DNA of 63,880 nt, filler included, from 4 parts of 4 records of this genome joined end to end with filler, not necessarily neighbours in it, one strand, 5' to 3'; shown: positions 2,019 through 26,984, counted from the whole stretch's first letter. The notes: generated from the sequence alone by a model not told the origin. A program made the numbers and translations.

Positions 2019-2026
2019 GATCTCAT

Positions 2027-9165: not shown

Positions 9166-9192
9166 CAGGTTCGAGTCCTGGTGGGCCCACCA
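9166..9192 (+). tRNA. 3' end of a tRNA (T-arm to CCA), probably CAT-anticodon tRNA-Ile2; left att site
   Basis: CAGGTTCGAGTCCTGGTGGGCCCACCA; first 12 nt match the last 12 nt of the contig, where the CTCATAA anticodon loop is visible. Confidence 0.85.
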
Positions 9193-9256
9193 TCTAACAT
9201 TCTGATTTTGCTGGTTTTTGTCCTGCATTTGCGGACGGCTCTAAGGTCTGTTGAAC

Positions 9257-10264
9257 CTAAGAAGCCGCCTTTGCTGGCTTGGTGAAGTCCAAAATCTCGG
9301 CTTCTGCCTTCAAATGATCCGGTGCAAATCGGCCATAGACGCGCTCGGTCACGGCGATTGAACTGTGGCCAAGATACTGGCTGACCTTCTGCATGGGTAC
9401 GCCATTGGCGACCAAATGAACGGCGGCGGTGTGGCGCAGGACATGCGGTGTTACGCCCTTGACGCCTGCCGCCTTGGCCGCTGCCGTGAAGCCGGTGCGC
9501 AGGCGCTTGATCGGCTCGCCTGCCCATTCAATCACATTGTCGGTCATGGCAGCGCCTTCTGCTGCGGATAGTGCTGCCCGCAACCCGCTATTCATCGGCA
9601 CGATCGCCCGACCCTTGCGGGGTCCGGTTTCGTTTGTCCGCAAATCGATGGTGCCGCGCTCGAAGTCAACGCGATCCCATGTCAGCTCAAGAATTGCGCT
9701 CACTCGCCCGGCTGTCGCCAGCATCAGCAGAATGGCAAGCTGGACATGGTGCGCTTTGGGTGCGGCCAGCAGCTTGTCGATCTCCCGCCGGGTTAGCCAG
9801 CGATCTTTCGGGGCGGGCTTGGCTGGGCGCTCTACTTGCGGCGCAAACGAGATCAGGCGGGCATTTCGTGCCCAGGTCATAACCGTGCGCAGGTGTCCAA
9901 GCTCGGTCCAGATCGTGCCATCATGCTTGCCGGCCTTGCGACGGGCGGCGGTATATTTCCGGCAGATCTCAACGGTCAGGTCATCGGGGCGCAGCGCAGC
10001 AAAATGCTCTTTCATCGCGCGCCATTCGAAGTCCATAGCGACGGCAACGCGGCGCCCTTGCTTTTCCTGGCGGTACATCTCCCACAGCGTGCCGATGGTC
10101 AGCCCTTCGGTGCGCAACGTCTCGCGCTGGTAGATCGCTAGGGCTTCGGTTTCCGCCGCCGCTCGCGTGAGTGCGTCAAGACGATAACGTCGTCGCTTGC
10201 CGCCTTGCCACCAGGTGACGGCGAACTTTCCATTGAGGCGACCGATCCGAAGCTCTGCTGACAT
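9257..10264 (-). CDS. int: Tyrosine recombinase/phage integrase
   Basis: Catalytic set ATAGRVSAIL (R), HVLRH, LGHSS, RVYGRF (Y); adjacent to tRNA att. Confidence 0.97.
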   Translation of the reverse strand: MSAELRIGRLNGKFAVTWWQGGKRRRYRLDALTRAAAETEALAIYQRETLRTEGLTIGTLWEMYRQEKQGRRVAVAMDFEWRAMKEHFAALRPDDLTVEICRKYTAARRKAGKHDGTIWTELGHLRTVMTWARNARLISFAPQVERPAKPAPKDRWLTRREIDKLLAAPKAHHVQLAILLMLATAGRVSAILELTWDRVDFERGTIDLRTNETGPRKGRAIVPMNSGLRAALSAAEGAAMTDNVIEWAGEPIKRLRTGFTAAAKAAGVKGVTPHVLRHTAAVHLVANGVPMQKVSQYLGHSSIAVTERVYGRFAPDHLKAEAEILDFTKPAKAAS

Positions 10265-10422
10265 CTCTGTTCATATTCCTCGATTGCGTCTGCCGGTATT
10301 CTGATCAGGCGCTGGCCCAAACGAAAAGCCCGCAGCTCTCCCCTGTGAATAAGGTTGCGTACGTGGTTCGGTGAGCAGCACCAGATCTGCGCAACTTGGT
10401 CGGGTGTGTAGGGCCGGGTCAT
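10138..10422 (-). CDS. Excisionase-like HTH_17 DNA-binding protein
   Basis: YTPDQVAQIWCCSPNHVRNLIHRGELRAFRLGQRLIRIP; directly upstream of and overlapping int. Confidence 0.85.
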   Translation of the reverse strand: MTRPYTPDQVAQIWCCSPNHVRNLIHRGELRAFRLGQRLIRIPADAIEEYEQRCQQSFGSVASMESSPSPGGKAASDDVIVLTHSRERRRKPKP

Positions 10423-11201
10423 GCGCCGACCTCATCAGCGAGATAGAAGCCCTTGCCGTAACCAGCGCTCTTTATGGTAACGCCGGACCCGCGCAGCTTT
10501 TTGCGGGCGTACGAGACGGCGACCTTGAGCGCGTTGTATTTTTGCTCATAGCTTTTCGGCACCGGGTCATCTGCGAACATGAGTTCGATCACCCGTTCGT
10601 TCGACGTCACCCGGCCTGCTGTGTTGTCGATGATCCGAATGATCTGGCGCTCGCGCGGTTGCAGGTTGTAGGCGCACATGACCTGTTCAAGTGACGGGCT
10701 CAGGATCTGCCGACTGCAACACCGGCATTTCACGGGCCGAAACTGACGGCGGAAGCCGCCCGACTTGCCGGCAAACGGGAGGCGCAAGGGGGCAGGGGCC
10801 GTGGGATCTGGTGTGAGGTGAAGAGAGCGCCGGTGTTCCGCGCGTCCTCGCCCAAAGGGCCTTTTTCGGTAATTGGCCTTGATGACGTAGCCGAGGCCTC
10901 TCAACTTCCGCCTCAAGCCGGTTATCGCGACCCTTGTTGCTAGGTTAGCTTTGCTCTCTCCAGGCCCGCCATCGTCCTCATCTTTGAACATCCAGCCGGC
11001 AATAGCGAAACTGCTGGCCTTGCCATCATCTTCCGGCCTGCCAGCTTGATCCCATAGAAACTCAAGGACCGCTTCCTCCTGCTCTGTAAGCTCGATCAGG
11101 TGCGTCAGCCGTTGCGGCGAGGGGCACAGGGTCGCGCCCCCACAATAGGGGCAGGGGGCGCCCTGGAAACGGGTGAACGGCGGCAAAGGATTGTGAAGCA
11201 T
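10419..11201 (-). CDS. Putative regulator with two tandem CxxC + OmpR-type winged-helix units
   Basis: CPYCG...LTEQEEAVLEFL...RVAITGLRRKL...IKANY and CRCCS...LQPRERQIIRII...KVAVSYARKKL...IKSAGYGKGFYL; ATGA overlap with xis. Confidence 0.7.
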   Translation of the reverse strand: MLHNPLPPFTRFQGAPCPYCGGATLCPSPQRLTHLIELTEQEEAVLEFLWDQAGRPEDDGKASSFAIAGWMFKDEDDGGPGESKANLATRVAITGLRRKLRGLGYVIKANYRKRPFGRGRAEHRRSLHLTPDPTAPAPLRLPFAGKSGGFRRQFRPVKCRCCSRQILSPSLEQVMCAYNLQPRERQIIRIIDNTAGRVTSNERVIELMFADDPVPKSYEQKYNALKVAVSYARKKLRGSGVTIKSAGYGKGFYLADEVGA

Positions 11202-11238
11202 AGCGACCCCATGACTTGCACAGGGATCACTAATTACA

Positions 11239-11419
11239 TTGCTAAAAAGGCAACGTTCGGCAATTCCTGTAACAAAGCATGGTTGGCATTGCCAGTCTTG
11301 TCAATATATTCAATACGTTGCTAAATAGGCAATGGTTTCTATTTGTGCTGCATTGCTAAAAAGGCAATGTTTGAACTGCTTGCGGAACTTGTTTTTGTTT
11401 CCCGTTGCTGAAAACGCAA
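11239..11419. promoter_or_regulatory. Cluster of four palindromic TTGC-N7-GCAA operator-like sites
   Basis: Sites at 11239-11253, 11318-11332, 11353-11367, 11405-11419 in AT-rich intergenic DNA; further copies at 12398-12412 and 18354-18368. Confidence 0.75.
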
Positions 11420-11436
11420 CGTCTGGAAAAACACCT

Positions 11437-11670
11437 TCAATCCGCGCCTTTTCTTAGACGCACCCCTGGCCCCTCGCCATTGCCGGGTATGAAGATCACG
11501 CCAGCGGCCTCGAGCGCGCTCCGCATTGCGTCCATGTGGATCGGCTTTGGCGTGCTGCGCCCTGCCTCAAAATTTCTGACAGTCGAGTTGCCAGAGCTGG
11601 CAGCAGTCGCAAGCTGGTCTTGGGTCCAATTCAGAAGGGCTCGGGCAGCGCGGCACTGTGCGGGGGTCAT
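11437..11670 (-). CDS. XRE-family HTH repressor
   Basis: MTPAQCRAARALLNWTQDQLATAA...TVRNFEAG...ALEAAGVIFI...GPGVRL; GGAG RBS. Confidence 0.92.
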   Translation of the reverse strand: MTPAQCRAARALLNWTQDQLATAASSGNSTVRNFEAGRSTPKPIHMDAMRSALEAAGVIFIPGNGEGPGVRLRKGAD

Positions 11671-11712
11671 ATCTAACTCCAAACGTCTTTCGTCATTTAT
11701 AACGAAAATCGT

Positions 11713-11741
11713 TTGACAAGCCAATAGGCAACGATTATCGT
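11713..11741 (+). promoter_or_regulatory. Sigma70-type promoter for the rightward (alpA-rep) operon
   Basis: TTGACA (11713-18), 17-nt spacer, TATCGT (11736-41); divergent from XRE gene. Confidence 0.75.
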
Positions 11742-11778
11742 TGTTTTTAACGTTAACCGGAAACTATGGAGCTTCCCA

Positions 11779-12060
11779 ATGACCACCGCCACGAATGACG
11801 ACGCCCGCCTGATCGACCTGGGCAACACCCTTGCCGGCCAGATCCGCACTGCGCTCGACGCGCTTGCCGCGATGGAAGCCGAGGGGCCGATGCCGGTCAA
11901 TGAAATGGCCCGCGCCGAACAGATCATGGCGCCAAGCCAGGCAACTGTCGCTGAAATGTTGAGCCTCAAGCCGTGCTCGCTGATGGGGTTTTTCGCGGCT
12001 GAAATGGCGGCTCGCTGGGCTGATGGGCAGGCGTTCGGTGTCGTGCCGGCAGATGCCTGA
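11779..12060 (+). CDS. Hypothetical protein
   Basis: 93-aa ORF with GGAG RBS, first gene after the promoter. Confidence 0.65.
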   Translation: MTTATNDDARLIDLGNTLAGQIRTALDALAAMEAEGPMPVNEMARAEQIMAPSQATVAEMLSLKPCSLMGFFAAEMAARWADGQAFGVVPADA

Positions 12061-12120
12061 TTTGAACTCCCAACTATCGCAGGGTCAATTTCGGACAACA
12101 GCCGACGCATGGAGAAACCA

Positions 12121-12318
12121 ATGCACTCAGCACCGACCAAAACCGTTCTCATCAGCACCGAGCAGCTTATGCAGATCGTGCCAGTTTGCAGCCGCACGAT
12201 CAAACGCTGGGTCGATGCCGGTCTATTTCCGAAGCCAATCCGGCAGGGCAAGAAAAACCTTTGGCCTGCGGACAAGATCGACGCCTGGGTCGAGGCAGGA
12301 GGTGCGACGGAACACTAG
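12121..12318 (+). CDS. AlpA-family transcriptional regulator
   Basis: LISTEQLMQIVPVCSRTIKRWVDAGLFPKPIRQG...WPADKIDAWV; GGAGA RBS. Confidence 0.88.
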   Translation: MHSAPTKTVLISTEQLMQIVPVCSRTIKRWVDAGLFPKPIRQGKKNLWPADKIDAWVEAGGATEH

Positions 12319-12449
12319 TCGAGCCGCGCCGAGGTAAAAAGAAACCCTCGGCTCATCTCTGAAACCAAGGGCGGGGAAGTCAAAATGATTTTCAATATTG
12401 CACAAATAGCAACGTTCCCGACCCTTCGCAAGTCGAAAGGGCGAGCACG

Positions 12450-13106
12450 ATGTTCGCACAATCCTATCGTCGGCCATTGCCCCTCGGCATTGGCTTCATC
12501 CCTCCACTTCCCATCGATGAAATCGGCTGGTCATGGGCTGCGCTCAATGACCTCTATCGCCAGATGGAGCAGAATTCGCGCGTTTACGGCACCAAAGCCT
12601 ATGACGGGCATCTGATGCGCGTCTTGCTTTTGAGCGAAAACCTTCCTCACGCCGCTGCCGAGATCGGCTTTCGTGGCACCAGTCTGTCGCTGGGCAAGAT
12701 CATCAAGGCGGGTAAGCAGATTGCTGCCAGTGCCGAGATTGAAGTTCACGGCTTCCCGAGCCTGCCCGACCTTGACGGCTGGCGGTGCGACCGGTTGCCG
12801 GAATTTCTTGGCATTGGCGAGCCGGAAAGCGAGCACGACGCGATCAACAAGGTGCGGAACGAGCTCGACGGGCTGTTCGATGACGCCAGAACCGGGACGC
12901 ATGACCTAAGGGTCGATATCGCGTTGCTTTGGGCTGGCCTGTCACGTGCCGAGGCTGAGATGGACTATCTCGGCCACTCCACCACACTTAGCCGCATTCA
13001 TGACCGCGCCGCCGCCATTGCTGGCCGGTTGGGCGTGTCGCTGGTCAATCTCGACGCGGAAGTCGCCGCGGCGGGCTCCACGCAACACAAAACCATGGCG
13101 GCTTAA
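12450..13106 (+). CDS. Hypothetical protein
   Basis: 218-aa ORF between alpA and helicase; no motif recognised. Confidence 0.65.
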   Translation: MFAQSYRRPLPLGIGFIPPLPIDEIGWSWAALNDLYRQMEQNSRVYGTKAYDGHLMRVLLLSENLPHAAAEIGFRGTSLSLGKIIKAGKQIAASAEIEVHGFPSLPDLDGWRCDRLPEFLGIGEPESEHDAINKVRNELDGLFDDARTGTHDLRVDIALLWAGLSRAEAEMDYLGHSTTLSRIHDRAAAIAGRLGVSLVNLDAEVAAAGSTQHKTMAA

Positions 13107-13151
13107 CTGATGGGCATGGACCGAATTGAAGCGAATGGCGGGGGGCGGTCA

Positions 13152-14744
13152 ATGTCCCCTGCCGCCCTGAAAGTGGTTACCGGCCAGGAGGACATTCCTG
13201 CGGGTCGCGTGATCCGCTACGTCGAGAGCGAGTTGCCGACTATCGTGGACATGGCCTGCGAGATGCTGGTTGAGGCCAATGTGCGCCTCTACGCGCGCGG
13301 CACCTCTCTATTCCGACCGATCCGCCTTGCCGGTTCTGGCGAAGCAAAGCGCATTCGCCGTGGGCAGGGCGCGGCGATCCTTGTGCCGGTTGACGAGACG
13401 GCTCTCGTCGAGATCCTGACCACGGCAATTGAGTGGCGCAAATATGATGGCCGCAAAGACATCTGGAAGCCGATTGCGGCGCCCAGTGCTGTTGCCAAAA
13501 CCATCATTGCCCGGCGTGGGGACTGGCCGTTCCCCCAATTGGTCGCGATTGTCACCGCGCCGACCTTCCGGGATGATTTCAGCGTGATCAGCGAACCTGG
13601 CTTTGATCAGACCAGCGGCATTTATTTCGACCCCGGCACCACTGAATGGCCGTCGATCAAGCCCCGGCCCACCAAGGCCGATGCGCAGGCATCCTTGGCC
13701 ATGCTTTGCGATGTCTTGGCAGATTTCCCATTCGTCTCGCCGTCCGATCGAGCGGGCGCGCTTGCAATGCTTCTGACGGCACTGGTGCGACCGGCCTTGC
13801 AAACTGCGCCAATGTTCGGTGTGTCTGCCCCGACGCCAGGTTCTGGCAAATCCAAGCTGGTGGACATCGCCGCCATTCTTGCGACGGGCCGGTGTGCTGC
13901 TGTCATGTCGGCGCCGCGCGAAGAAGCAGAGCTGCAAAAGGCCGTGGGTGCGGCCCTTATGGCTGGTGACGCATTCCTCAATCTCGACAACATCGAGCAT
14001 GCGCTGCGATCAGAGTTCCTGTGCCAGACATTGACCCAGGAGACGGTCAAGGTTCGCAAGTTGGGCGAAAGCCAGAACCTCGACCTGCCGACCAATGTCA
14101 CCTTTGCCTCGACGGGGAACGGCCTGCGCTTTGCCGGTGATCTCACCCGTCGCGTCGTGCTCATCTCATTGGATCCTGGCACCGAGCGGCCAGAAGAACG
14201 GATTTTCACGCGCGATGCCGTTGATGTTGCGCGGCAATCGCGGGTCAAGCTCGTCTGCGCTGGTCTGACATTGTTGCGTGCGTTCGTCGTTTCTGGTGCG
14301 CCCGCTATCAAGCCGGCTCTCGGTTCATTCGAGATGTGGTCTGACCTGGTGCGCTCGGCTCTGGTGTGGTTGGGCGAGGCTGATCCGCTCGCCAATGCTG
14401 AGCGAGTGCGTGACGCAGACCCGGAGCGGGAGCAAACTCTCAGCGTCCTGCTGGCTTTACCGGAAGGGGAATTCAAGGTGGCCGATATAGCGGCCATGCT
14501 GCATGAGGATCAAGGGCGCTCGCATGTGAAGGTCCACGCCGAGCTGGCCGACGCCCTGGCAGCGTTTTGTGAACGTGGCGCGCTCTCCGTGAAGCGGCTG
14601 GGCAACTTCCTATCGAAGCATCAGGGGCGAATTCTCGACGGGATGAAAGTCGAGTTCGTGAAGCGCGACCGGCGTGGTGTTGCTGTCTGGCGCGTTACCG
14701 GCAGATCAGTGCGGCAGGCTGAATTTCAAAATGAAATCTGGTGA
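13152..14744 (+). CDS. Replication helicase-like P-loop ATPase of phage/satellite primase-helicase type
   Basis: Walker A APTPGSGKS, Walker B FLNLDN, STGN and DLTRR motifs; no N-terminal primase domain recognised. Start could be 13110. Confidence 0.82.
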   Translation: MSPAALKVVTGQEDIPAGRVIRYVESELPTIVDMACEMLVEANVRLYARGTSLFRPIRLAGSGEAKRIRRGQGAAILVPVDETALVEILTTAIEWRKYDGRKDIWKPIAAPSAVAKTIIARRGDWPFPQLVAIVTAPTFRDDFSVISEPGFDQTSGIYFDPGTTEWPSIKPRPTKADAQASLAMLCDVLADFPFVSPSDRAGALAMLLTALVRPALQTAPMFGVSAPTPGSGKSKLVDIAAILATGRCAAVMSAPREEAELQKAVGAALMAGDAFLNLDNIEHALRSEFLCQTLTQETVKVRKLGESQNLDLPTNVTFASTGNGLRFAGDLTRRVVLISLDPGTERPEERIFTRDAVDVARQSRVKLVCAGLTLLRAFVVSGAPAIKPALGSFEMWSDLVRSALVWLGEADPLANAERVRDADPEREQTLSVLLALPEGEFKVADIAAMLHEDQGRSHVKVHAELADALAAFCERGALSVKRLGNFLSKHQGRILDGMKVEFVKRDRRGVAVWRVTGRSVRQAEFQNEIW

Positions 14745-14858
14745 GTGCTGGGTTGCAGGGTTTTGCCGGGTCACTTCCCGGCTCTCCTATGGAAATGTCA
14801 TCTGACAATTTTCTCGCGTACCTGAAATCAAACCCAGCAAACCCAGCAAACCCTGCAC
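14745..14858. repeat. Inverted arrays of iteron-like repeats; candidate replication origin
   Basis: GTGCTGGGTTGCAGGGTTTTGCCGGGT (14745-71) faces AACCCAGCAAACCCAGCAAACCCTGCAC (14831-58), with a TGTCA-TC-TGACA palindrome between. Confidence 0.7.
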
Positions 14859-14975
14859 TTGTCCGATCCCCGATGCTGTCAAATGTAGACATCTCGCGCG
14901 CGTAGGCACCCCAACCACACAGCCCCAACCATCAGGCCGCATTCTGTCGCTAGAATATTTTAAGGCGATCTGGAA

Positions 14976-15257
14976 ATGACACCACCCCGTGGCCGAGGCC
15001 GACCCAAAGGCGTTCCGAACCGAATTACCACCACCGTCAAGCGCGCTATCGAAGCCGCATTTGAAGGTTCTGGCGGCGTGGAAGGGTTCACCCAATGGGC
15101 GAAAGAGCACCCGACCGAATTCTATAAGCTCTGGGCCAAGCTCCTGCCGGTCGATATCAAAGCCGACATCAAGCATACCGGCTCCGTCACCTTCATTGTC
15201 GATACCGGCGTGCCACGCTCCCCTGATGGTCCGCTGGTGGAGGCGCGACCATGCTGA
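14976..15257 (+). CDS. Small phage protein with GRPKG motif (DUF5681/TerS-position-like)
   Basis: RGRGRPKGVPNRITTTVKRAIEAAF...PTEFYKLWAKLLP..IKADIKHTGSVT. Confidence 0.7.
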   Translation: MTPPRGRGRPKGVPNRITTTVKRAIEAAFEGSGGVEGFTQWAKEHPTEFYKLWAKLLPVDIKADIKHTGSVTFIVDTGVPRSPDGPLVEARPC

Positions 15258-15817
15258 CCTCGAAACAGCAGCGCTTTGTCGAAGAATACCTGATCGACCG
15301 GAATGCCACTCAGGCCGCGATCAGGGCGGGATATAGCGAAGCGACGGCATATTCCATCGGTAACGAGAACCTGAGCAAACCTGAGATCGTGAAAGCCATA
15401 TCAGACGCAACCAAAGCCCAATCGCGGCGCACGCTGATCAATGCTGACCGCGTGCTGGAAGAGATTGCCGCGCTCGCCTTTTGGGATCCAGCCTCTCTTG
15501 TCGAAATCATGGTCGAGGTCGCGCCCGGTGAATTCCAGTGCCAGGCGATAACCGAGCCGGCCCATATCAAACACCTGCCGGAAGAAGTGCGCCGCGCGAT
15601 CGTGGGCTGGAGCTATGACCGCAACCAGAATTTCACGCTCAAGCTCGCGGATAAGTCTAAGGCACTCGATCAGCTCGCGCGCCACTTGAGCCTCTACAAC
15701 GACAAGCTCGACCTGAACGTCACCGACAATATCGCCGAGCGACTAGCCAGGGCGAAGGCTCGGGCCAATGATGAGGCCGCTCGCCAGGCGGTTGAAGGCG
15801 ACGGCGATGACGCGTGA
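15251..15817 (+). CDS. terS: Terminase small subunit (Terminase_2 family)
   Basis: LTSKQQRFVEEYLIDRNATQAAIRAGYS...ENLSKPEI; LKLADKSKALDQLARHL. Confidence 0.93.
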   Translation: MLTSKQQRFVEEYLIDRNATQAAIRAGYSEATAYSIGNENLSKPEIVKAISDATKAQSRRTLINADRVLEEIAALAFWDPASLVEIMVEVAPGEFQCQAITEPAHIKHLPEEVRRAIVGWSYDRNQNFTLKLADKSKALDQLARHLSLYNDKLDLNVTDNIAERLARAKARANDEAARQAVEGDGDDA

Positions 15818-17321
15818 TCAGCTTGTTACCATTATCGAGGCCGCTGCCGAGCGCCATGGCGTCCTGCCCGATGCCCTGCTGGCGATTGCAAACCTTGAGA
15901 GCTCGAGCAACGCTAACGCCAAAAACCCCCGCTCAAGTGCATCCGGCCTGTTCCAATTCGTTGACGGCACCGCCCGCGAATATGGGCTGACGGGCACGAA
16001 ACGGAATGACCCAGAAGCCCAGGCGAACGCCGCGGCGAAAATGATGGCCACCAATAGCCGATCGCTCACCCGCGTTCTTGGCCGTGACCCCGATGCCGGC
16101 GAACTGTATTTGGCCCATCAGCAGGGCTTAGGCGGTGCAACTGCGCTGATCCGTGGGGGTGATGGCCTGGCTGTGGATGCCCTGACCGGCGTTTATCGCT
16201 CCCGAGCCAAGGCGGAGGCCGCTATCAAACTCAATGGCGGCTCGCTGGATATGTCGGCGTCGGCCTTTGCCGGAAAATGGATCAGCCGCGCCAATAGGGA
16301 GATTGGGACAATTCCCAGCGGCAAAATTCCCAATACGGTGGCCAGCGAGATCGATGTTGCGCCGCGCCGCCCGGTCACATTGCCGACGCCTGTGTCTCAG
16401 CGACCCGGCCAGCCGGTTTCAGCAGCGAGCCGCATGGCGGCGACGACGCCAGTGACGCCACGTTTGACCGCTGATGGCCAGAACATTCGCTCGTACCATA
16501 TCCCTGACATGACGCCGACCGTGGTGACTGGTGGCCTTGCCTCGCTCACGCCGAACCCGGTGCAAGAGACGGCGCCGTCTCGCCTGGATCCCGACATCAT
16601 GAGCGGCGATCGGCAGGGCGGTGGCCCCGGTGTGACTGTTGCCACCGTTAGCTCGACCACTGGCGCCGTCACCGATGCCGGTTCCTTCGCCGGCCAAGAT
16701 CGCGGCCCGGTGTCTGTCGCTCCCCGCAAGTCCGCGCCGCTCACCATCGGCGCTCAATCGTCGTTCGTGGGGCAGGACGCCGCCAAATTCGTTGCCGGGC
16801 CTGCGTCTGTGCAGAAAGACCAAAGCCGCCTGACGACGCCCGCCGCGCTGCCTGAACCTACTGCTGGCCTGAACAAACAGCAGGTCGAGGCTGCAACCGG
16901 TTTCCGCCTGGGCAATGGATCCGTGCTGACCAGTTCAGTCGAGGTCGAGAACCCGGCCTATGCCCGCCTCATGGAACGGGTGCGGCAAGGTGAAATCGAG
17001 CTCCGGGGTATCTCAGCTGGTGGCATGGCCATGTCGAGGGATGCCCGCGCCAGATACGACGCATCAATGAAGGCGCTAGAGGCGCAACGCCAGCAGCTTG
17101 CCAATACCAGCCGCACCATCAGCGTGCAGCGCCAGCAGCGGGCGCCTGTGGCCGTTCCGGTGCAGCCCGTCCAGCCCAAGGCGCCGGCAGGTTTCAACCC
17201 GGCCAACCACTCGGCTGCGCAGATGGAAGCGGTTGCGGCTGGCCGCTCGTTCTTCACCGGCGATGACGGCGGTATTCAGCCGACGCACGCCATGAATGGC
17301 AAGCTGCGGTACACGTACTAG
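15807..17321 (+). CDS. Lytic transglycosylase (SLT) domain protein with long Pro/Ala/Thr-rich C-terminal region; probable virion-associated protein
   Basis: AIANLES...NAKNPRSSASGLFQFVDGTAREYGL...YLAHQQG; no signal peptide. Confidence 0.85.
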   Translation: MTRDQLVTIIEAAAERHGVLPDALLAIANLESSSNANAKNPRSSASGLFQFVDGTAREYGLTGTKRNDPEAQANAAAKMMATNSRSLTRVLGRDPDAGELYLAHQQGLGGATALIRGGDGLAVDALTGVYRSRAKAEAAIKLNGGSLDMSASAFAGKWISRANREIGTIPSGKIPNTVASEIDVAPRRPVTLPTPVSQRPGQPVSAASRMAATTPVTPRLTADGQNIRSYHIPDMTPTVVTGGLASLTPNPVQETAPSRLDPDIMSGDRQGGGPGVTVATVSSTTGAVTDAGSFAGQDRGPVSVAPRKSAPLTIGAQSSFVGQDAAKFVAGPASVQKDQSRLTTPAALPEPTAGLNKQQVEAATGFRLGNGSVLTSSVEVENPAYARLMERVRQGEIELRGISAGGMAMSRDARARYDASMKALEAQRQQLANTSRTISVQRQQRAPVAVPVQPVQPKAPAGFNPANHSAAQMEAVAAGRSFFTGDDGGIQPTHAMNGKLRYTY

Positions 17322-17369
17322 ACTGGTGCCAATGACCAATTATGATGCCCCCATTGCTTGGGGGTATTC

Positions 17370-18458: not shown

Positions 18459-18863
18459 ATGGCATTTCCGCGAAATCCTAAAGATGAGCCCCTGGCTTAT
18501 AGCCTCGATCAGGCAGCGATCGTCATGGGGATCAGCAAGAGCTCTATCTACACGCTGATTGATGAGGGGAAGCTCGTCGCGCGCAAGTTTGGTCGCCGCA
18601 CGGTGATCACCCGGCTCGATGCCGAGGTTTTTCTCCAGTCCCTGCCTGCGGTGGCGGCAAGCGGAACTCCCGCCCAGACAGACGCCGCCACCCCAAAGCT
18701 ATCCCCATTGGACCAGATGATCGCTGATCAGGTCGAGGCCGACCGCGCATCGATCTATGGCGGGAAACCCCAATCACCGCTGGCCGAGGTGGAAGCGCTG
18801 AGCATGACCAGCCGCCATCGGCCAGCCAATTCCAACATTCCTGAGCCCGGTGAGGACATCTGA
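18459..18863 (+). CDS. HTH_17 (excisionase-like) DNA-binding protein with C-terminal extension
   Basis: LAYSLDQAAIVMGISKSSIYTLIDEGKLVARKFGRRTVI. Confidence 0.85.
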   Translation: MAFPRNPKDEPLAYSLDQAAIVMGISKSSIYTLIDEGKLVARKFGRRTVITRLDAEVFLQSLPAVAASGTPAQTDAATPKLSPLDQMIADQVEADRASIYGGKPQSPLAEVEALSMTSRHRPANSNIPEPGEDI

Positions 18864-18865
18864 CC

Positions 18866-19417: not shown

Positions 19418-19418
19418 T

Positions 19419-22280
19419 ATGGCAGAGGTTCCGGTCTACAAACCCACGGTGCAGGAGCGCCCGGCATTTCAGCAGCCTTTGACCGTCCGCGCCTCTGGCG
19501 AGGATATGGGCGCCGCTATTGGCCGGGGCATGCAGTCGCTTGGGCAGGGTGTGCAGCGTGCATCGAACAATATCGCTGACCTGAACACTTTGATCGCCCA
19601 GGCCGATGCGAAAAACGCGCTCAACGAGTTCACCGCCTGGACCACAAACGCGGCCTATGGCGATGGCGGCTATCTGACTTTGCAGGGTAAAGCCGCGCTC
19701 GATGCGCACGCGAAATTCAACGCCGAACTGCGCAAAGCCCGCTCTGATTTCAGCCGCAAGCTGAGCCCTGCTGCCCGAGCCGTTTATGACCAGGCCTCTA
19801 CCGCCCGCGTTCTGTCGGCACAGCAGTCGGCACTAGTGCACCGGGCGGATCAGCAAAAGTCCTACATGGTCGGCACCTCGACGGCCCGGCAGGAACTGCT
19901 CGCCAATGAGGCGCTGCTCCATGCCGGCAATCCGGCGAAGATGAATTCAGCGCTGACATTGGGCGTGAACGAAGTCCGCGAACAAGGCGCGCTGCTGGGC
20001 TGGGATGAGCACACAACCAAGCTCAAGGTGCAGGAATACCAGTCGGCAACGCTTTCCAGTGTTGCGCTCCAGATCGCGCAAGAGGATCCTATCGCTGCGG
20101 TAGAGTTTCTTTCCGAACATGCCGACAAGATGACGCCCCTCGACGGCATGAAGCTGATTGATGCTCTGGCGCCTAAGGTTGCCGATGCTGCTGCCCGCGA
20201 TGCCGTCACGATGGGCTCGACGCCGATGGTTGCGCCGGGCAGTGCCGCTGATCTCATTGCGGGTTTCGAAGGTTTCAGCAGTTCGGCTTACAATGACCCT
20301 GAGCTGTCGGACACCGGGCAGCAGGTCGGGCCGAACATCTACCGCGCCGGGTTTGGTAGCAATACGGTTACGCGAGCCGATGGCACCGTTGTCGAGGTCA
20401 ATCCGTCAACGGTTGTGACTGAGGCCGATGCCAAGCGTGATTTGGCGCGGCGCCTGGCAGAAGAGTTCATTCCGCGTGCCATTGAGGCGGTTGGCGTCGA
20501 GGCATGGTCGCGGCTGGACAGCACGACGCAAAACGTGCTCGCCAGCCTGACCTATAATTATGGTTCACTGCCGGCACCTGTGGCCCGCGCTGTCGTGACT
20601 GGCGATAGAACAGCCATTGCCGCCGCGATTGAGGGGTTGGCCGGTCACAACGGCGGCATCAATGCCGATCGGCGCCGGAAAGAGGCCGCTTTGGTCCGCA
20701 ATGGCCTTGGCGCTGGTGTGCAGTTCTCTGAGCGTACCGAGGCCGTGCTATCCGCCTTGCCTGCCGATATGTCGGTGCAGATCCGCGAAGTCGCTGCCGA
20801 CGAGATTGGCCGCGAACGTGCCGCTGAGGCATCGGCGCGCCGGGCTGCGTCTGCCATTGCCAAGGAGACGCTTGCGCTAGGGATTGTGACCGGCAATGTC
20901 ACCTCCGAGCAGGAGATTTTGCAGCACCCTGACCTTGATGACGGCGACCGGGTGACGCTGATCAACTCGCTTCGATCCGAGCAGGGCGCCACCGCCGAGG
21001 CGCGGGCCTATGTGTCCGCACGCGCTGCTGGCGAAAACCGCGCGCTCAATCCGTACTCGGCTGACGATCGCTCACTGGCCGACAAAGCCTATGAGCTTGA
21101 GATGTCCACAGTGCCGCCCGAACAGCGCGACACAGTGAGCATGGAGTGGGTGCGCGACACCGGCATGATCCCCAGCCCGATGATTGCCGCCGTGCGCCAG
21201 GGGCTCAATTCCAATGACCTTGGCGCGGTAGCTGCGGCCATGGAGATGTCGGCCAAGCTATCGGCAGATGCGCCCATGGCAGTCGGGCACCTCGATAATG
21301 CTTCGGAAATCGAGCAGGCGGCGGCGCAGCACACCGCGATGGTCGATGGCAAGGGCTGGAGCGCAGAACAGGCCGCGCGGTTCATCATCGATCAACGCGA
21401 CCCGAAGAACCGGGCAAACGCCGAATTACTCAAATCCGCATGGACCGAAGCGGCCAAGGGGCTGGGTATCGGTGATGTGCTGAGCGCCTTCGGAGACAAC
21501 ATCTTGCCGGGTGGACCTGTCGCCGGGCTTACACCTCTACAGCAAGAGGCGGTGCTTGCCGACTATCTGAGCGCTGCCGAAACCGCGTTTAAGGGGCCAG
21601 CTCAGGGTGACGTTGGCATAGCGCGCTCGATGGCCCTTGCCCAGATCAAGCGCACCTATGGCGTATCGACAGTATCGGGGCAAGAGGTGATCATGCCGTT
21701 CCCGCCCGAAATGCTTTACCCGCCTGTCGGGGGTTCTCACGACTATATCCGCGACATGGCCATAGCCGATGTGCGCCAGGTCGCCCCGGATGCCCAGAAC
21801 GTCATGCTGACGGCGGTGCCTGAGACTGCCCAGGACGTGCGTTCGGGCAAGCCGCCGCGCTATGCCCTGACATTTGTTCGGCCCGATGGTGTGATTGATC
21901 AGGTGCCGGGGTTGTTCGTGGTGGACACCGACCAGCTCCAGCAACTCGCCATGCTCGACACCGAGGAACGGCGCCTGCGTTTCGAGATCGAACGGGCCTA
22001 CAAGTCTGCTCTCAGCGACCGGCCCATGGATTTCACCCGCACCTATATCGAGCGCATGAGCGGGGGGCTGGTTGGCCCGCCGACGCCTGCCGAAGTGGTG
22101 CCGGGCTTCGCTGACCTCGATGCGCAGTTGACCGACATCGGCCTGCGCCGTGACGCACTGCTGGGCCGTCCTGCCTCGCTGGGCAGCGCCGTGCCAATGG
22201 TCGATCCTGCCGACGCTGAGGCCGCATGGCTTGAGCAGCAATCCTCAACCTTTGGAATAATGGGAGGGGCGGCGCGATGA
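19419..22280 (+). CDS. Large helical protein with internal phage lysozyme (GH24-like) domain; probable podovirus-type internal virion/ejection protein
   Basis: ADLIAGFEGFSSSAYND...YRAGFGS...LASLTYNYG...NADRRRKEAAL at about 20245-20700; Ala/Gln-rich helical remainder. Confidence 0.78.
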   Translation: MAEVPVYKPTVQERPAFQQPLTVRASGEDMGAAIGRGMQSLGQGVQRASNNIADLNTLIAQADAKNALNEFTAWTTNAAYGDGGYLTLQGKAALDAHAKFNAELRKARSDFSRKLSPAARAVYDQASTARVLSAQQSALVHRADQQKSYMVGTSTARQELLANEALLHAGNPAKMNSALTLGVNEVREQGALLGWDEHTTKLKVQEYQSATLSSVALQIAQEDPIAAVEFLSEHADKMTPLDGMKLIDALAPKVADAAARDAVTMGSTPMVAPGSAADLIAGFEGFSSSAYNDPELSDTGQQVGPNIYRAGFGSNTVTRADGTVVEVNPSTVVTEADAKRDLARRLAEEFIPRAIEAVGVEAWSRLDSTTQNVLASLTYNYGSLPAPVARAVVTGDRTAIAAAIEGLAGHNGGINADRRRKEAALVRNGLGAGVQFSERTEAVLSALPADMSVQIREVAADEIGRERAAEASARRAASAIAKETLALGIVTGNVTSEQEILQHPDLDDGDRVTLINSLRSEQGATAEARAYVSARAAGENRALNPYSADDRSLADKAYELEMSTVPPEQRDTVSMEWVRDTGMIPSPMIAAVRQGLNSNDLGAVAAAMEMSAKLSADAPMAVGHLDNASEIEQAAAQHTAMVDGKGWSAEQAARFIIDQRDPKNRANAELLKSAWTEAAKGLGIGDVLSAFGDNILPGGPVAGLTPLQQEAVLADYLSAAETAFKGPAQGDVGIARSMALAQIKRTYGVSTVSGQEVIMPFPPEMLYPPVGGSHDYIRDMAIADVRQVAPDAQNVMLTAVPETAQDVRSGKPPRYALTFVRPDGVIDQVPGLFVVDTDQLQQLAMLDTEERRLRFEIERAYKSALSDRPMDFTRTYIERMSGGLVGPPTPAEVVPGFADLDAQLTDIGLRRDALLGRPASLGSAVPMVDPADAEAAWLEQQSSTFGIMGGAAR

Positions 22281-25200
22281 TCGTTCCACGCGAAGAAACC
22301 AATGTGGTCCCCAATGCCGGCGCCCTCGACCTGACACCGCGTCAGATGGATGCGCCCAATGCGGGCGACGTGATCGGTGCGGCGTTTAGAACCGAGAGCC
22401 CGATTGTTTCGTTCCTATCCCAGCACAGGGCAGGGGGCGACAAGGATCCTGCATTCAACCCTTGGGATGACATTGCCGGCACTGAGTTCGAACCGTATTG
22501 GGACCGGTTTGCGACCGTCTGGAATGCCGGCCAATCCGCCGCGCTGAAACAGCAGATCACGCAGGAATTGGCCGACCGCCGCACGCTCGCCGCATCCGGT
22601 GGATGGGGCATGCTCGCTGGTATGGGCGCATCTGTGCTGTCGCCCGATGTGCTCCTGCCGGGCGGCACGATCTATCGCGGGGTCCGCACCGGCCAGGCCG
22701 CGCTGCGCACTGCAATGTCAACGGCGGGCGCCACGGCACTGTCAACGTCGATGGCCGAAATGGGCCTTCTGGCCACCCAGGAGCTACGGACACCTCAAGA
22801 GGCAGCGGTGAATGTCGGCATGTCTGCCCTGCTGGGCGGTGTGCTGGGCGGCACGATCTCCGGGGTGTTCTCCGGTGGCGATTGGCTGCGCCTGTCTCGG
22901 GGCATGGATGATGAGGCCATTGCCGCGAACGATATGCGGCTGCTGGAACAGAACGAAAATGCAGTGCTCGCCGGCATCAAGTCCTCAGATGCTGGTGCTA
23001 TGGCGCGGCGCGTCCCGACCTTGGCCGAAAACACCATCGCCGGGCGCGCTGCTGCCACAGTTGGCGCAGCGACGGCTCAATTGAACCCCGTTTTGCGGGC
23101 GCTGCACTCGGCCTCGCCAGTATTTCGCGACATCGCAACCCGGCTATTCGAGAACCCGATCTATGTGAAGGCCAATCTTGCCGGGGAAACTAGCGGGCCA
23201 GCGGTCGAGACGATGGTCAAGCAATACCAGGGCAGTCTGGCGCGGGGTCTGGAGCAATACACCGCCGCTTATGGCGAACACCGCAAAGCGGGCGGGCAAC
23301 TTTCCCGCGCCGAATTCAGTGAAGCCGTGAGCCGCGCTATGCGCCGGGCAGACAGGAGCACCGACCCGACAATAGCCAAGGCTGCGCAGGCTTGGCGGTC
23401 GAGCTTGTTTGACGCGGGTAAAGAGGAAGCAATCAAGCTCGGCATGTTGCCGGCTGATGTGTCGGTCGAGACGGCCAGCAGCTACCTGACCCGCATGTAT
23501 AATCGACCGCTGATCGAGGCCCGCGAACAGGAGTTTAAGGCCATTGTGCGCGGCTGGCTCGACCAGGAGGTGCGCAACGCACAAATTCGGTTCGATAACG
23601 GCAAGCTCGACCCCCGCTATGCGACCGATGCCCGCCCACCTGAATTTCTAAACGACGCCGACCGGGCAGGGTACGTCAACGAGATCACCGACGCCGTGTT
23701 CAACAAGATCACTGGCCGCGAGTTCGACATGGACATGCCGCGCGACCTTGTGGTGACGGATCGCGGCCCCCTGGCCAAGCGCACGTTCTCGATCCCCGAC
23801 CATATGATCGAGCCCTTCCTCGAGAACGACATCGAGGTGATCGCCCGTCGCTATGCTCGCGTTATGGGCGCCGACATTGAGCTGACCCGGCAATTCGGCA
23901 GCGTGGACCTGGCTGACCAGATCAAGGACATCAAGACCGACTATGCCAAGCTGCGCGAGGCGGTGCAGGCCGGTGTCGATCCTGAGACGGGCGCGCCGCT
24001 ACCCAAAAAGCTGACCGCGAAACAGCGGGAAGCCGAGATCAAACGGCTATCGCAGCGCGAAAAGTCGGACTTGGCCGACCTCAAGGCCCTCCGCGACCTC
24101 ATCCGAGGCACGCACTTGGCCGAATTGCAGGGGAAGATCGGCACCCGAGCGATGCGGGTTGCCGGCACCTTCAATTTCATCCGGTCTCTGGGCGGCGTCG
24201 CCCTTTCGTCTGTTGGTGATGTTGGGCGGCATCTAATGGTGCACGCGTTTGCTCAGGACGGCGGCGTGCTGCGCGATGGGCTGTTGCCGCTGATCAGGAA
24301 CGTCAAGGGCGTCAGGATGGCGGCTGGCGAGGCCAAGCTAGCGGGCACGGTGCTTGAGAGAGTGCTGAACACTAGGCTCGCGACCATGGCGGAACTGACG
24401 GATCCCTATTCATCGCGGTCGCCATTCGAGGCGTTCATGGATAACTCGGCAACGGTGTTTTCCAAGCTGACGCTGCTGGACCAGTGGACGGACTTCAACA
24501 AGTCGCTGGCCTCGACCATGACACAGAACCGCGTCCTTCGCGGCTCCGGCAACTATGCGGGGCTGACGAAAAAGGAGCGCGCATATCTCGCCTATCTCGG
24601 CATTGATGGCAGCATGGCCGAACGCATTGCCCGGCAATTCGAGGCACATGGCCTTGAGGATGGCGGCGTGCGGGTGGCGAACAGCGAAGAATGGACCGAC
24701 GATGTTGCCCGGCGCTCGTTTCGCGCGGCCATCGCGAAAGACGTGGACACGACGATTGTGACCAAGGGCGTCGGGGATATTCCGCTCTGGATGAACACCC
24801 CTGCCGGCAAGCTGATCGGGCAATTTAAGTCGTTTTCTTTAAGCGCCCATCAGCGAGTTTTGATGCGCGGTTTGCAGGAGCGCCAAGCCGCAATGGTGTC
24901 GGGCGTCATCTTCTCAATGATGGCCGGCATGCTGGCGTATGTCCTGAAATCTGCCGAGAGCAATCGCATGGACGACATCTCCGACAATCCGGGCCGGTTC
25001 ATAGCCGAAGGATTAGATCGCTCGGGCATTTTCTCAATTGCGTTCGAGATCAACAACACGGTCGAAAAGGCGTTCGGGGTCGGTGCCTATGGCGCCTTGG
25101 CCGCTGCGTTCCCCAATGCCAGCCAGGAGGGGACGGCCAGCCGCTACGCTATGCGCTCGACCGCTGCGGGCTTTGGTGGCCCCTCAGCAGACCTAATCGA

Positions 25201-25357
25201 CACGGCGGTGCGTGCTGCCCAGGCCATCAAGGGCAGTGGCGACGGATTGACCGAGGGCGACGTGAATTCGATCCGGCGATTGCTGCCATACGCGACGTTG
25301 CCGGGCATTCGCTCATTGGTCGAGTGGGTCGGCGTGCCGGCAGTAGCGGGCAAATAA
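22277..25357 (+). CDS. 1026-aa probable podovirus-type DNA ejection protein (T7 gp16/epsilon15-like position and architecture)
   Basis: N-terminal glycine-zipper hydrophobic segments (GWGMLAGMGASVL; NVGMSALLGGVLGG), YLTRMY, LIGQFKSF, C-terminal hydrophobic helices and RRLLPY; ATGA-coupled to upstream gene. Confidence 0.72.
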   Translation: MIVPREETNVVPNAGALDLTPRQMDAPNAGDVIGAAFRTESPIVSFLSQHRAGGDKDPAFNPWDDIAGTEFEPYWDRFATVWNAGQSAALKQQITQELADRRTLAASGGWGMLAGMGASVLSPDVLLPGGTIYRGVRTGQAALRTAMSTAGATALSTSMAEMGLLATQELRTPQEAAVNVGMSALLGGVLGGTISGVFSGGDWLRLSRGMDDEAIAANDMRLLEQNENAVLAGIKSSDAGAMARRVPTLAENTIAGRAAATVGAATAQLNPVLRALHSASPVFRDIATRLFENPIYVKANLAGETSGPAVETMVKQYQGSLARGLEQYTAAYGEHRKAGGQLSRAEFSEAVSRAMRRADRSTDPTIAKAAQAWRSSLFDAGKEEAIKLGMLPADVSVETASSYLTRMYNRPLIEAREQEFKAIVRGWLDQEVRNAQIRFDNGKLDPRYATDARPPEFLNDADRAGYVNEITDAVFNKITGREFDMDMPRDLVVTDRGPLAKRTFSIPDHMIEPFLENDIEVIARRYARVMGADIELTRQFGSVDLADQIKDIKTDYAKLREAVQAGVDPETGAPLPKKLTAKQREAEIKRLSQREKSDLADLKALRDLIRGTHLAELQGKIGTRAMRVAGTFNFIRSLGGVALSSVGDVGRHLMVHAFAQDGGVLRDGLLPLIRNVKGVRMAAGEAKLAGTVLERVLNTRLATMAELTDPYSSRSPFEAFMDNSATVFSKLTLLDQWTDFNKSLASTMTQNRVLRGSGNYAGLTKKERAYLAYLGIDGSMAERIARQFEAHGLEDGGVRVANSEEWTDDVARRSFRAAIAKDVDTTIVTKGVGDIPLWMNTPAGKLIGQFKSFSLSAHQRVLMRGLQERQAAMVSGVIFSMMAGMLAYVLKSAESNRMDDISDNPGRFIAEGLDRSGIFSIAFEINNTVEKAFGVGAYGALAAAFPNASQEGTASRYAMRSTAAGFGGPSADLIDTAVRAAQAIKGSGDGLTEGDVNSIRRLLPYATLPGIRSLVEWVGVPAVAGK

Positions 25358-25583: not shown

Positions 25584-26108
25584 ATGGTGAAGACTTATCA
25601 ATTTTCTCGTTTGGGCGCTGAAGGGCCTACCTATGAAGATCTTCTTGCAGATTGGCGCAACCAGTGTGAAACGTTTGACGAGGACTTTGATACTTACAGC
25701 GCTATCCCCTTCAGCGTGTTCAAGGAAATCCAAGAGCGCGATGCCGAAAACACCGGTCTCTACGCGGTTTGCCATGATGATGGGTTTGATGCCGTATGCA
25801 TGGTGAACCACGCGCGTATTCCTAAGCATGATGGCCCAGTGTTGAGGGTGCGACACATACTCCTGTCGCCGACATTCGACTTCGGAGAGCTTGACATTGC
25901 TGAATATGGTGGTGCACTTGTTCGCATCCTTCAGGGAGCGCTTGCGTTATCATCTGAAGGTAAACTGCAAGCCCGCTACATCAAGTTGCATGCTCGCAGT
26001 CCCGCTGACTTTCCGTTTTTCACCGCCCTTCAAACGGCGTTAGACGGAACTTCCGTGTTCGAGTCTGTAAAAATGGCTGGTGCATGGTTACATATAACGA
26101 AGAAGTAA
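25584..26108 (+). CDS. Hypothetical cargo protein (possible GNAT-like fold)
   Basis: 174 aa, GAGG RBS, more AT-rich than the element core. Confidence 0.75.
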   Translation: MVKTYQFSRLGAEGPTYEDLLADWRNQCETFDEDFDTYSAIPFSVFKEIQERDAENTGLYAVCHDDGFDAVCMVNHARIPKHDGPVLRVRHILLSPTFDFGELDIAEYGGALVRILQGALALSSEGKLQARYIKLHARSPADFPFFTALQTALDGTSVFESVKMAGAWLHITKK

Positions 26109-26150
26109 CCACCTACAGGGTATGGTTGCGATCACATCGAGGGACGGACA

Positions 26151-26285
26151 ATGAAGATTGAGCAAAACGACGAACTGCTATCAGCAGTCGTATCTGCCAT
26201 CAGGAACGTCGGCCTGACCGCTTTCAAGAAAACCTCTCTGTTCGCTTCAAATGAGCGATTGATTGAGGTGAAGAAGGCAGCGTGA
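26151..26285 (+). CDS. 44-aa small protein (absent from ORF track)
   Basis: MKIEQNDELLSAVVSAIRNVGLTAFKKTSLFASNERLIEVKKAA*; purine-rich RBS; followed by terminator. Confidence 0.6.
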   Translation: MKIEQNDELLSAVVSAIRNVGLTAFKKTSLFASNERLIEVKKAA

Positions 26286-26309
26286 TTGCTTGATCAACGC
26301 TGTAGTTTG

Positions 26310-26334
26310 AAGCCCCGCTTGTGCGGGGCTTTTT
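26310..26334 (+). terminator. Rho-independent terminator
   Basis: AAGCCCCGC-TTGT-GCGGGGCTT followed by further Ts. Confidence 0.88.
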
Positions 26335-26428
26335 ATTGTCTGGTTAATTGTGTGGACTGCGGCAGAATTCCGGTCGGCCGTCAACATGCCGAGTAAGTTC
26401 TTAGCTGCGCTGGCCTAGTGGCGACAGC

Positions 26429-26749
26429 CTATTCGGACCGCAGGCAAGATATGGGATCCGCCGCATTGGGGTTGTCGGTAAACACCACCCATTTGTCAGC
26501 CGCAGCAGGAACATCAGTTACATAGAGCCAGAGGAACGATGTCACCGGGTGTGAGCTGATGTCGCCTTCATACACCCAGCAGTCGGCGGCGTTGGGTGGC
26601 CCCTCAATCACCCAAACATCTGCTGCTTCCGGCGCGTCAGTCACGTATATGTCGCTGGCATGGGCCAGGGCAGACGTTCCGCCGAGAAGTATCAACGCGG
26701 AAAAGACCTTCGCATAGAAGCTCCACTTGTCGAATGCGGTCTGGATCAT
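26429..26749 (-). CDS. Small secreted protein with short internal repeats (DUF6150-like)
   Basis: Signal peptide ending ALAHA; repeats IYVTDAPEAADVWV, LYVTDVPAAADKWV, VFTDNPNAAD; GAGG RBS. Confidence 0.7.
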   Translation of the reverse strand: MIQTAFDKWSFYAKVFSALILLGGTSALAHASDIYVTDAPEAADVWVIEGPPNAADCWVYEGDISSHPVTSFLWLYVTDVPAAADKWVVFTDNPNAADPISCLRSE

Positions 26750-26953
26750 GTCGGTTGCTCCCTCAAGCCTCGATCAACCTTGCCGGGGCTCTCGGCAATC
26801 GGTCAAGCGGAATGAGAACAAAAGCGAACATGCGGACGGCACTCAGGTCTGCTGAACCTAATTTTCGGAACACTCTGTGAACCGATTGCGCTAGATGCGT
26901 TGCAAAAGTGGCACTTTGCGCCAAGCTGCGCCGGTTGCGCGTAGATGCCATCT

Positions 26954-26984
26954 GCTCATAACGGTCTGGTTCCAGGTTCGAGTC
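26954..26984 (+). repeat. Right att site: duplicated tRNA segment starting at the CAT anticodon loop
   Basis: GCTCATAACGGTCTGGTTCCAGGTTCGAGTC; upstream sequence does not form a tRNA 5' half. Confidence 0.88.

Follow-up and report, generated by a model that had tools for sequence, protein, structure and literature searches.

The DNA analysed here, called the window below, is a stretch of 63,880 nt made of four contigs of one genome that were joined artificially, and adjacency across the joins is not biological. One entire contig of 17,819 bp, at exactly 9166–26984, carries the element considered in this work. We regard it, with moderate confidence, as a complete satellite of about 17.8 kb that targets a tRNA(CAT) gene, in its 3′ half, and exploits a temperate podovirus whose morphogenesis module is T7-like. 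The original prediction for this DNA was that the element encodes its own DNA-ejection machinery. Homology of a gene cassette to those of podoviruses, synteny with phages and a fold match to T7 and PhiM1 core proteins support this, while the smallest cassette protein (183 aa) is assigned by position only. The 22 open reading frames (ORFs) of the element were scanned against Pfam, PHROGs and NCBIfam, which provided a family for 8/22, 11/22 and 5/22 of them, respectively. As had been predicted, none of these belongs to a capsid, portal, large terminase subunit (TerL), tail or conjugation protein. ORFs without a family reach at most 218 aa, which is too small for a hidden portal or terminase.

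A podovirus ejection cassette without a head or a tail

The cassette includes three genes on the plus strand, for proteins of 183, 958 and 1026 aa. The largest (22277–25357) is an internal virion or ejection protein of the T7 gp16 class (phrog_342, 3.9e-94; phrog_16310, 6.8e-140), phrog_342 being labelled 'internal virion protein with endolysin domain'. The glycine-zipper feature originally ascribed to it is present in the form of small-residue runs at residues 107–119 and 183–200. Its AlphaFold2 (AF2) model, obtained with a 35-sequence alignment, is all-helical and of low confidence (mean pLDDT 57). Comparison of this model with the PDB using Foldseek placed podovirus core-protein chains at ranks 1–6 (E 4.3e-5 to 7.2e-3, probability 0.95–1.00), from the mature T7 core, the PhiM1 pre-infection ejectosome and the E1004 core, and all later matches had E > 0.5. 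The PHROG and AlphaFold/Foldseek comparisons which had been proposed for this protein therefore both lead to podovirus core proteins, with T7 and PhiM1 first. Sequence searches of the PDB with the 958-aa and 1026-aa proteins returned nothing meaningful.

The 958-aa protein (19404–22280, plus strand) is an internal virion or ejection protein in the gp15 position, with a lysozyme-type domain. Its PHROG families (phrog_3572, 9.1e-20; phrog_10475; phrog_1044) are labelled endolysin and agree with the lysozyme domain first proposed for it, but the Pfam lysozyme match (0.0055) falls under the cut-off. It is 25–41% identical to the ORF located in IMG/VR podoviruses between a small internal protein and the gp16-like gene. 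The 183-aa coiled-coil protein (18866–19417, plus strand) is placed in the gp14 position by position and size only; it has no Pfam or PHROG family and only four relatives among 1.84 billion representatives.

Searches with the 1026-aa protein (tblastn) identified homologues in 104 phage records, all with less than 60% identity. That of the epsilon15-like Escherichia phage TL-2011b, gp38, is 30.5% identical over 98% of the protein. In this phage the tail proteins are followed by two small 'internal virion proteins', a 905-aa 'endolysin' and the 1004-aa homologue, and gp36, gp37 and gp38 have the same order as the element cassette, downstream of the tail proteins. Four IMG/VR podoviruses (30 ORFs scanned) carry the portal (phrog_332), capsid and tail tube A and B (phrog_394 and phrog_376), then an internal virion protein of about 160–180 aa (phrog_418), an SLT-bearing protein of 900–990 aa, the phrog_342/16310 protein and a tail fibre. 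More generally, among 50 IMG/VR loci retrieved with the 35-sequence alignment, 43 include a tail-tube B match, upstream in 42 and downstream on the opposite strand in the other (L365). Six of the other seven have almost no upstream DNA and the seventh is a contig of 4.9 kb (L375; see below). Homology or a fold match, together with a position after the tail tube in phages, identifies the core proteins here, the fold part coming from the low-confidence model. Judged by sequence and gene order, the 183/958/1026-aa trio occupies the T7 gp14/gp15/gp16 position. The resemblance to the internal core of T7 and TL-2011b extends to gene order, protein sizes, phrog_342/16310, the all-helical fold match and an attached muralytic domain. 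In contrast to T7-like and epsilon15-like phages, the element has the cassette by itself, with no portal, capsid, tail tube or fibre gene. A tape-measure or conjugation identity of the large proteins was also considered; no such family was found and the synteny with phages is clear.

A second difference concerns the SLT (lytic transglycosylase) domain. In intact podoviruses the homologous domain belongs to the protein in the gp15 position, whereas in the element it is found on a separate 504-aa protein (15807–17321, plus strand; PF01464, 9.2e-12, as originally proposed) and the 958-aa protein carries the lysozyme-type domain instead. This stand-alone lytic transglycosylase is composed of the SLT domain (residues 1–175), a disordered Pro-rich linker and a small conserved C-terminal domain; in the AF2 model only the two domains fold and residues 176–356 are disordered. 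It matches lytic transglycosylases of the PDB at 1e-08, and Glu31-Ser32 is invariant across the 11 sequences compared.

The full-length proteins align end to end with their phage homologues (residues 2–1018 of the 1026-aa protein with IMG/VR locus L117 at 38% identity), as would fit retention of their native function. This leads us to consider it rather unlikely that the cassette is a weapon or shield, its core proteins spoiling helper particles, a form of interference for which other satellites have other means, or these proteins or a secreted 106-aa protein blocking incoming phage DNA at the envelope, even though it lies in its own operon, led by a helix-turn-helix (HTH) gene and apart from the unit of the small terminase subunit (TerS), even though two muralytic domains are carried and even though the small signal-bearing protein adjoins the cassette. 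In such a role the element would still be a satellite, and it would be compatible with the reading that we prefer.

Packaging, replication and integration modules

The remaining genes include those expected of a satellite. TerS, which would redirect packaging, is encoded at 15251–15817 on the plus strand (PF03592, 5.4e-38; phrog_51, 4.2e-37), and its gene is overlapped by that of the SLT protein. Its best IMG/VR relative (55% identity) comes from a fragment of a podovirus that also encodes a phrog_332 portal and a phrog_394 tail tube, and this fragment shares its virion module with the phages carrying cassette homologues. Several of the latter are prophage-derived and have integrases.

The element has its own replication module, a primase/helicase-like replication protein (13110–14744, plus strand; phrog_29234, 6.7e-125; phrog_19930, 'DNA polymerase/primase', 8.5e-28) without a Pfam match. 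Just downstream, a repeat search revealed short iterated and inverted repeats (14746–14857), with three copies at 9-nt spacing (14829–14857) and an inverted partner at 14746–14765, which are a weak candidate for the origin. A 93-aa ORF separates them from TerS.

A leftward unit, on the minus strand, includes a regulator with a C-terminal winged-helix Trans_reg_C domain (10419–11201; PF00486, 1.7e-07), an HTH_17/excisionase-type DNA-binding protein (10138–10422; PF12728, 5.5e-12; phrog_1840, excisionase; TIGR01764, 4.1e-09) and a tyrosine integrase (9257–10264; PF00589, 5.6e-24; phrog_1, 7e-51). The integrase gene adjoins a tRNA 3′ end, with a tRNA copy at the opposite end of the element. The regulator is a candidate master repressor. 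Four copies of a partly palindromic 21-nt repeat, found by a repeat-family search, occupy the divergent promoter region (11237–11423), where promoter-like sites are present on both strands at 11283–11332, and a fifth copy lies at 12396–12416, ahead of the 218-aa ORF. To judge from their placement, the repeats are probably operators of this regulator.

The order initially read here, int-xis-repressor followed by alpA-helicase-ori-terS, stands for the integrase, the xis-type HTH protein, the regulator, the replication protein and TerS. The origin is weak and the ORF called alpA (about 12385–12615) has no family match. Regulators are represented by three HTH_17/excisionase-like genes, none of which is identified as AlpA, and the Trans_reg_C protein.

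The same layout in related elements

Full-length relatives of the SLT protein form 10 clusters (49–78% identity) and their alignment retrieved two metagenome loci, L171 and L172. These are near-identical, come from contigs of 216 kb and 91 kb, and were counted as one variant. Both have the layout of the window element, which begins with tRNA-Met(CAT) and int and takes about 17.6 kb to reach the last gene. Amino acid identity between this variant and the window is 99% for the integrase, 98% for the xis-type HTH protein, 51% for the regulator, 74% for TerS, 72% for the SLT protein, 36% for the HTH protein of the ejection operon, 70%, 94% and 89% for the 183-, 958- and 1026-aa proteins, and 100% and 95% for the 174- and 106-aa proteins that follow them. 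The variant differs in two modules, the replication gene and the PrtN region, which are both replaced. Its primase-type gene is a different one (phrog_1156, 2e-46), and the window's version of the replication gene is present in X1, one of the following relatives.

Contigs assembled from public runs add two variants: X1 (17,497 bp), and X3 (15,547 bp) with X4 (21,722 bp), counted together. Positions 9166–24296 of the window correspond to 4–14987 of the X1 record and 12062–22374 to 6843–17144 of the X4 record, with equal spacing. No head-tail block is inserted in L171/L172, X1 or X3/X4, which are collinear with the window. A search for other tRNA-integrated elements with terS and ejection genes and no capsid, as suggested at the outset, therefore finds them. 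In a large protein collection, the closest relatives of the SLT and 1026-aa proteins are listed on contigs whose lengths match those of the run contigs, and lengths of 13,347, 175,329 and 17,497 bp occur for close relatives of both proteins. Part of the stretch is present in 16 sequencing runs belonging to 12 studies, each with fewer than half of its words, and the variants described here are drawn from X1, X3 and X4.

Comparison of the window with L172 gives dS values of 0.4–1.3, and the ratio of nonsynonymous to synonymous substitutions (dN/dS) is 0.09 for the 958-aa protein, 0.11 for the 1026-aa protein, 0.22 for the 183-aa protein, 0.30 for the SLT protein and 0.15 for TerS. By this measure the ejection genes are under purifying selection (0.09–0.22). 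The integrase is 98.8% identical to that of L171/L172, with a dN/dS of 0.02.

The presence of the same layout in at least three other variants, together with purifying selection, makes a decayed one-off prophage unlikely. We consider it improbable that the element is the remains of a podovirus prophage which lost the block from TerL to the tail tube and the tail fibre and survives only as a relic or because of an advantage to its host. Its int, xis and TerS genes are of phage type, and every cassette homologue at or below 62% identity with enough upstream DNA lies in a normal phage (43 of the 50 IMG/VR loci having tail-tube B). However, at least four variants share the headless and tailless layout; two of these are separated by dS values of 0.4–1.3, and the replication module has been swapped. 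The long ORFs are intact (dN/dS 0.09–0.3). Moreover, the gap between TerS and the cassette is no simple deletion scar, as it holds the SLT gene, small ORFs and two regulators, and the replication protein is of the satellite-like primase type. The original prediction would have been undermined by relatives that are intact prophages of about 40 kb; this is so only for distant cassette homologues (at most 62% identity) and not for the close relatives L171/L172, X1 and X3/X4.

On an IMG/VR contig (L375, 1–4869), a TerS gene (51% identity to that of the element) occurs together with two small ORFs and with genes for a phrog_24149 and a phrog_342/16310 protein, with no TerL, portal or capsid gene between TerS and the phrog_342 protein. 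From this gene content, it may represent another headless and tailless satellite, of a different lineage.

A megablast comparison of the element with 50,697 phage records gave no match, and a scan of genome contigs with the SLT protein gave 106 pattern matches, of which 0 were confirmed. Among 401 Pseudomonadales genomes the 1026-aa protein has 7 weak partial matches (best E 6.9e-11) and is absent from the 4 nearest genomes. Single-protein scans of IMG/VR returned 1 locus for the 958-aa protein and 0 for both the primase and the 1026-aa protein, while TerS returned 80 loci that have TerS alone in common with the element.

Attachment site and ends of the element

The contigs of the window are separated by spacers at 9066–9165, 26985–27084 and 32205–32304, each composed of 44 N, TTAATTAATTAA and 44 N. 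The element ends at the contig ends, next to spacers, and the neighbouring DNA of the window is therefore not its real flank.

The left attachment (att) copy (9166–9192, plus strand) is the 3′ end of a tRNA(CAT), with part of the T-arm, the acceptor strand and CCA, truncated by the contig start. These opening 27 nt continue the tRNA-Met(CAT) of L172, which aligns from its position 3786 onwards to the window from 9166 onwards. The right copy (26954–26984, plus strand) is a partial tRNA(CAT) that begins with the final base of the 5′ arm of the anticodon stem, runs into the T-loop and is truncated by the contig end. Its 31 nt are 100% identical to positions 31–61 of the tRNA-Met(CAT) that adjoins the integrase gene in both metagenome loci (3767–3797 in L172 and 1237–1267 in L171, both within tRNA-Met genes). 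The first 12 nt of the 17,819-bp contig are identical to its last 12 nt. We infer that the element is bounded by a direct repeat of about 46 nt, starting at the anticodon loop, each copy of which is cut by a contig end. ARAGORN detected no tRNA in the window or in the contig's end-to-start junction. In run contigs with the real tRNA, its 5′ half shows up as a loose end at the position of 26954–26984. The claim that both att ends are present is thus correct insofar as the tRNA repeat is real, but the ends coincide with those of the contig and both copies are cut.

Although the first and last 12 nt are identical, both contig ends lie within the att repeat and the X1 relative is also a stand-alone contig (17,497 bp, word depth 487), we think it quite improbable that the contig represents an excised circular, possibly multi-copy, replicon in the sequenced culture, a matter of state rather than kind, as assemblies are in any case interrupted at repeats, short words are the basis of Logan contigs and L171/L172 show the integrated form.

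Two contigs of another run (X2) have unrelated sequence preceding the same 31-nt att piece, which suggests that other elements use the same tRNA(CAT) site.

Comparison with known satellites

Classical Gram-negative phage-inducible chromosomal islands (PICIs), of the EcCICFT073 type, have an integrase at one end, a regulatory switch, primase-type replication and a TerS that redirects the helper terminase. The element shares the end integrase, the regulatory switch, the primase-type replication module and TerS. It is larger than these islands, carries four virion-internal or muralytic proteins occupying about 7.5 kb, has no confirmed AlpA at the usual place and includes a regulator with an OmpR-type winged helix. 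A strict definition of PICIs, which admits no phage structural or lysis genes, excludes it, given its three to four proteins of virion-internal or muralytic type.

The closest precedent that we found is EcCIMP1, a 19,963-bp PICI located at tRNA-Thr in E. coli MP1 which is reported to be induced and transferred by the podovirus Kapi1 (Pick, Stadel & Raivio, ISME J 2025, PMC11773190). The words ejection and injection are absent from that paper and the cassette is not named as such in it. In RefSeq, EcCIMP1 has a 'phage DNA ejection protein' as well as a lytic transglycosylase protein of 906 aa, and PHROGs assigns four of its genes to phrog_651, phrog_598 (DNA ejection), phrog_917/2534 and phrog_770 (DNA transfer protein) with SLT. 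In many ways the two elements are alike. Both are integrative islands that measure roughly 20 kb and adjoin a tRNA gene. Each encodes an integrase, a primase and HTH regulators (HTH/AlpA-type in EcCIMP1), of which a second is found at the far end; both lack capsid, portal and TerL and carry a podovirus ejection cassette with an SLT-bearing protein. Induction and transfer by a podovirus have been demonstrated for EcCIMP1 and are predicted for the element described here. The two differ in sequence, as none of the 22 element proteins matches EcCIMP1 (tblastn against NZ_CP139039, 3564500–3587000, E ≤ 0.01). The EcCIMP1 cassette is of the P22 type (phrog_598, 917/2534, 770) and that of the element of the T7/epsilon15 type (phrog_342/16310). 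No TerS is annotated in EcCIMP1 while one is present here, and the hosts are an enterobacterium and a marine-type gammaproteobacterium, respectively. With no detectable common sequence, the element does not appear to be a member of the EcCIMP1 family. The view that this gene set belongs to no described satellite family must accordingly be qualified: EcCIMP1, with its P22-type cassette, is a precedent, but there is no sequence match to it and the cassette type differs.

The marine VEIMEs, capsid-less elements found in virus particles (Eppley et al., PNAS 2022, PMC9618062), are also similar in being marine integrative elements without capsid genes and in carrying an integrase, a primase/helicase and sometimes TerS. 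The terms 'ejection' and 'internal virion' occur 0 times in the main text of that article. A full-text search of the literature found no description of a satellite which encodes ejection or internal virion proteins and thereby supplies DNA-entry machinery.

A possible role in DNA entry

On the satellite reading, the regulator and the 21-nt operators would keep the element silent until a helper signal turned on excision, by the integrase and the xis-type HTH protein, and replication, by the primase/helicase-like protein and the nearby origin. TerS would then steer the helper's large terminase so that element DNA is packaged in helper capsids. The HTH-led operon would supply the core proteins of 183, 958 and 1026 aa, perhaps joined by the SLT protein, to be built into these particles, and the element-encoded proteins would later form a trans-envelope channel delivering element DNA.

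The most plausible benefit would be a route of delivery that does not depend on the helper's ejection proteins, or that withstands the factors which act on them. Superinfection exclusion by helper lysogens, the cells which a satellite most needs to enter, is an example. Transcription-coupled genome entry, which the T7 gp16 class also controls, could be another reason for a satellite to have its own version. The argument from exclusion draws on P22, in which SieA is reported to block DNA injection and escape maps to the ejection proteins gp16 and gp20 (PMC10461980).

Several points weigh against this interpretation. Podovirus procapsids already hold the ejection proteins of the helper and a satellite therefore has no obvious need for its own. 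Excision, packaging, expression and particle loading are predictions from the gene content. The other three contigs of the window contain no phage module that could belong to a helper, and there is no RNA run among the 16 runs which match part of the stretch. For L171/L172, the compared stretch stops just before the right flank and attR, and a dN/dS from two copies is compatible with part of the constraint dating from the time of the cassette in a phage. When 1590 ORFs from phage loci were searched by jackhmmer with the 183-aa protein, only L171/L172 were recovered and there was no similarity in the gp14 position. Finally, the fold match of the 1026-aa protein depends on a low-confidence model (pLDDT 57), with TM scores of only 0.16–0.21.

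More tentatively, and with less confidence than not, we propose that podovirus satellites form a broad and as yet unnamed class, whose members independently captured ejectosome cassettes according to helper type (P22-type in E. coli, T7/epsilon15-type here), load them into stolen capsids and so enter cells that exclude the helper, above all its lysogens. An unrelated E. coli satellite with the same layout and another cassette type suggests that podovirus satellites could have arrived at this solution in general. The satellites described so far interfere with packaging, capsid size or helper gene expression; if the proposal is correct, satellite and helper would be in conflict over DNA entry and not over packaging alone. 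Should entry specificity be set by the cassette, there would be effects on transduction range and superinfection exclusion in marine bacteria. The combination of satellite, ejection cassette and podovirus helper already exists experimentally, in EcCIMP1 and Kapi1, and the present element is suited to direct testing because it has TerS and a clean three-gene cassette.

Accessory genes and neighbouring contigs

Five small ORFs (103, 93, 104, 76 and 218 aa; 11405–13106, plus strand) precede the replication gene and have no family in the three collections; three are kept in L172, at 55–72% identity. A terminator-like hairpin found by consensus scan only (17344–17368, plus strand) closes the replication-TerS-SLT transcription unit. 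Between it and the second rightward unit lie small ORFs followed by a gene for a PrtN-family (pyocin activator/excisionase-like) DNA-binding protein (18017–18421, minus strand; PF11112, 2.2e-20; phrog_1300, 2.1e-21). The latter is absent from the L172 variant, in which this region is replaced.

The ejection operon opens with the gene of a second HTH_17 protein (18459–18863, plus strand; PF12728, 4e-07), and a gene for a 36%-identical HTH protein is found at the same position in L171/L172. Its final gene (25584–26108, plus strand) encodes the 174-aa protein, whose amino acid sequence is identical in the window and L172 although the neighbouring genes differ by 6–11%. The Atlas model of this protein has TM scores of 0.55–0.62 to GNAT clusters, and this GNAT-like predicted fold is a lead only. 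A strong terminator-like hairpin, again from a consensus scan (26309–26332, plus strand), closes the operon. The 106-aa protein (26429–26749, minus strand) has a signal-like N-terminus and four short repeats in its translation, and its gene adjoins attR. From these features it could be an accessory protein acting at the envelope.

The nearest longer relatives of the 1026-aa protein (1390–1420 aa) bear alphaproteobacterial names (Devosia, Pelagibacterium and Mesorhizobium). Contigs 1 and 3 of the window are gammaproteobacterial housekeeping DNA, in which LysS is closest to that of a Pseudomonadales MAG (77%), followed by Marinobacter (75%), and the cassette may have crossed between classes.

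The fourth contig (32305–63880) was considered as a possible helper phage and rejected, as it has no virion families. Its GC content is about 0.51, compared with about 0.62 in contigs 1 and 3, and it includes eight large ORFs without a Pfam family and with almost no PHROG family. It also carries an ORF of 3338 aa (51267–61283, minus strand) with many Tudor/Agenet-like repeats and ankyrin repeats. This contig may be a foreign island or belong to a different replicon.

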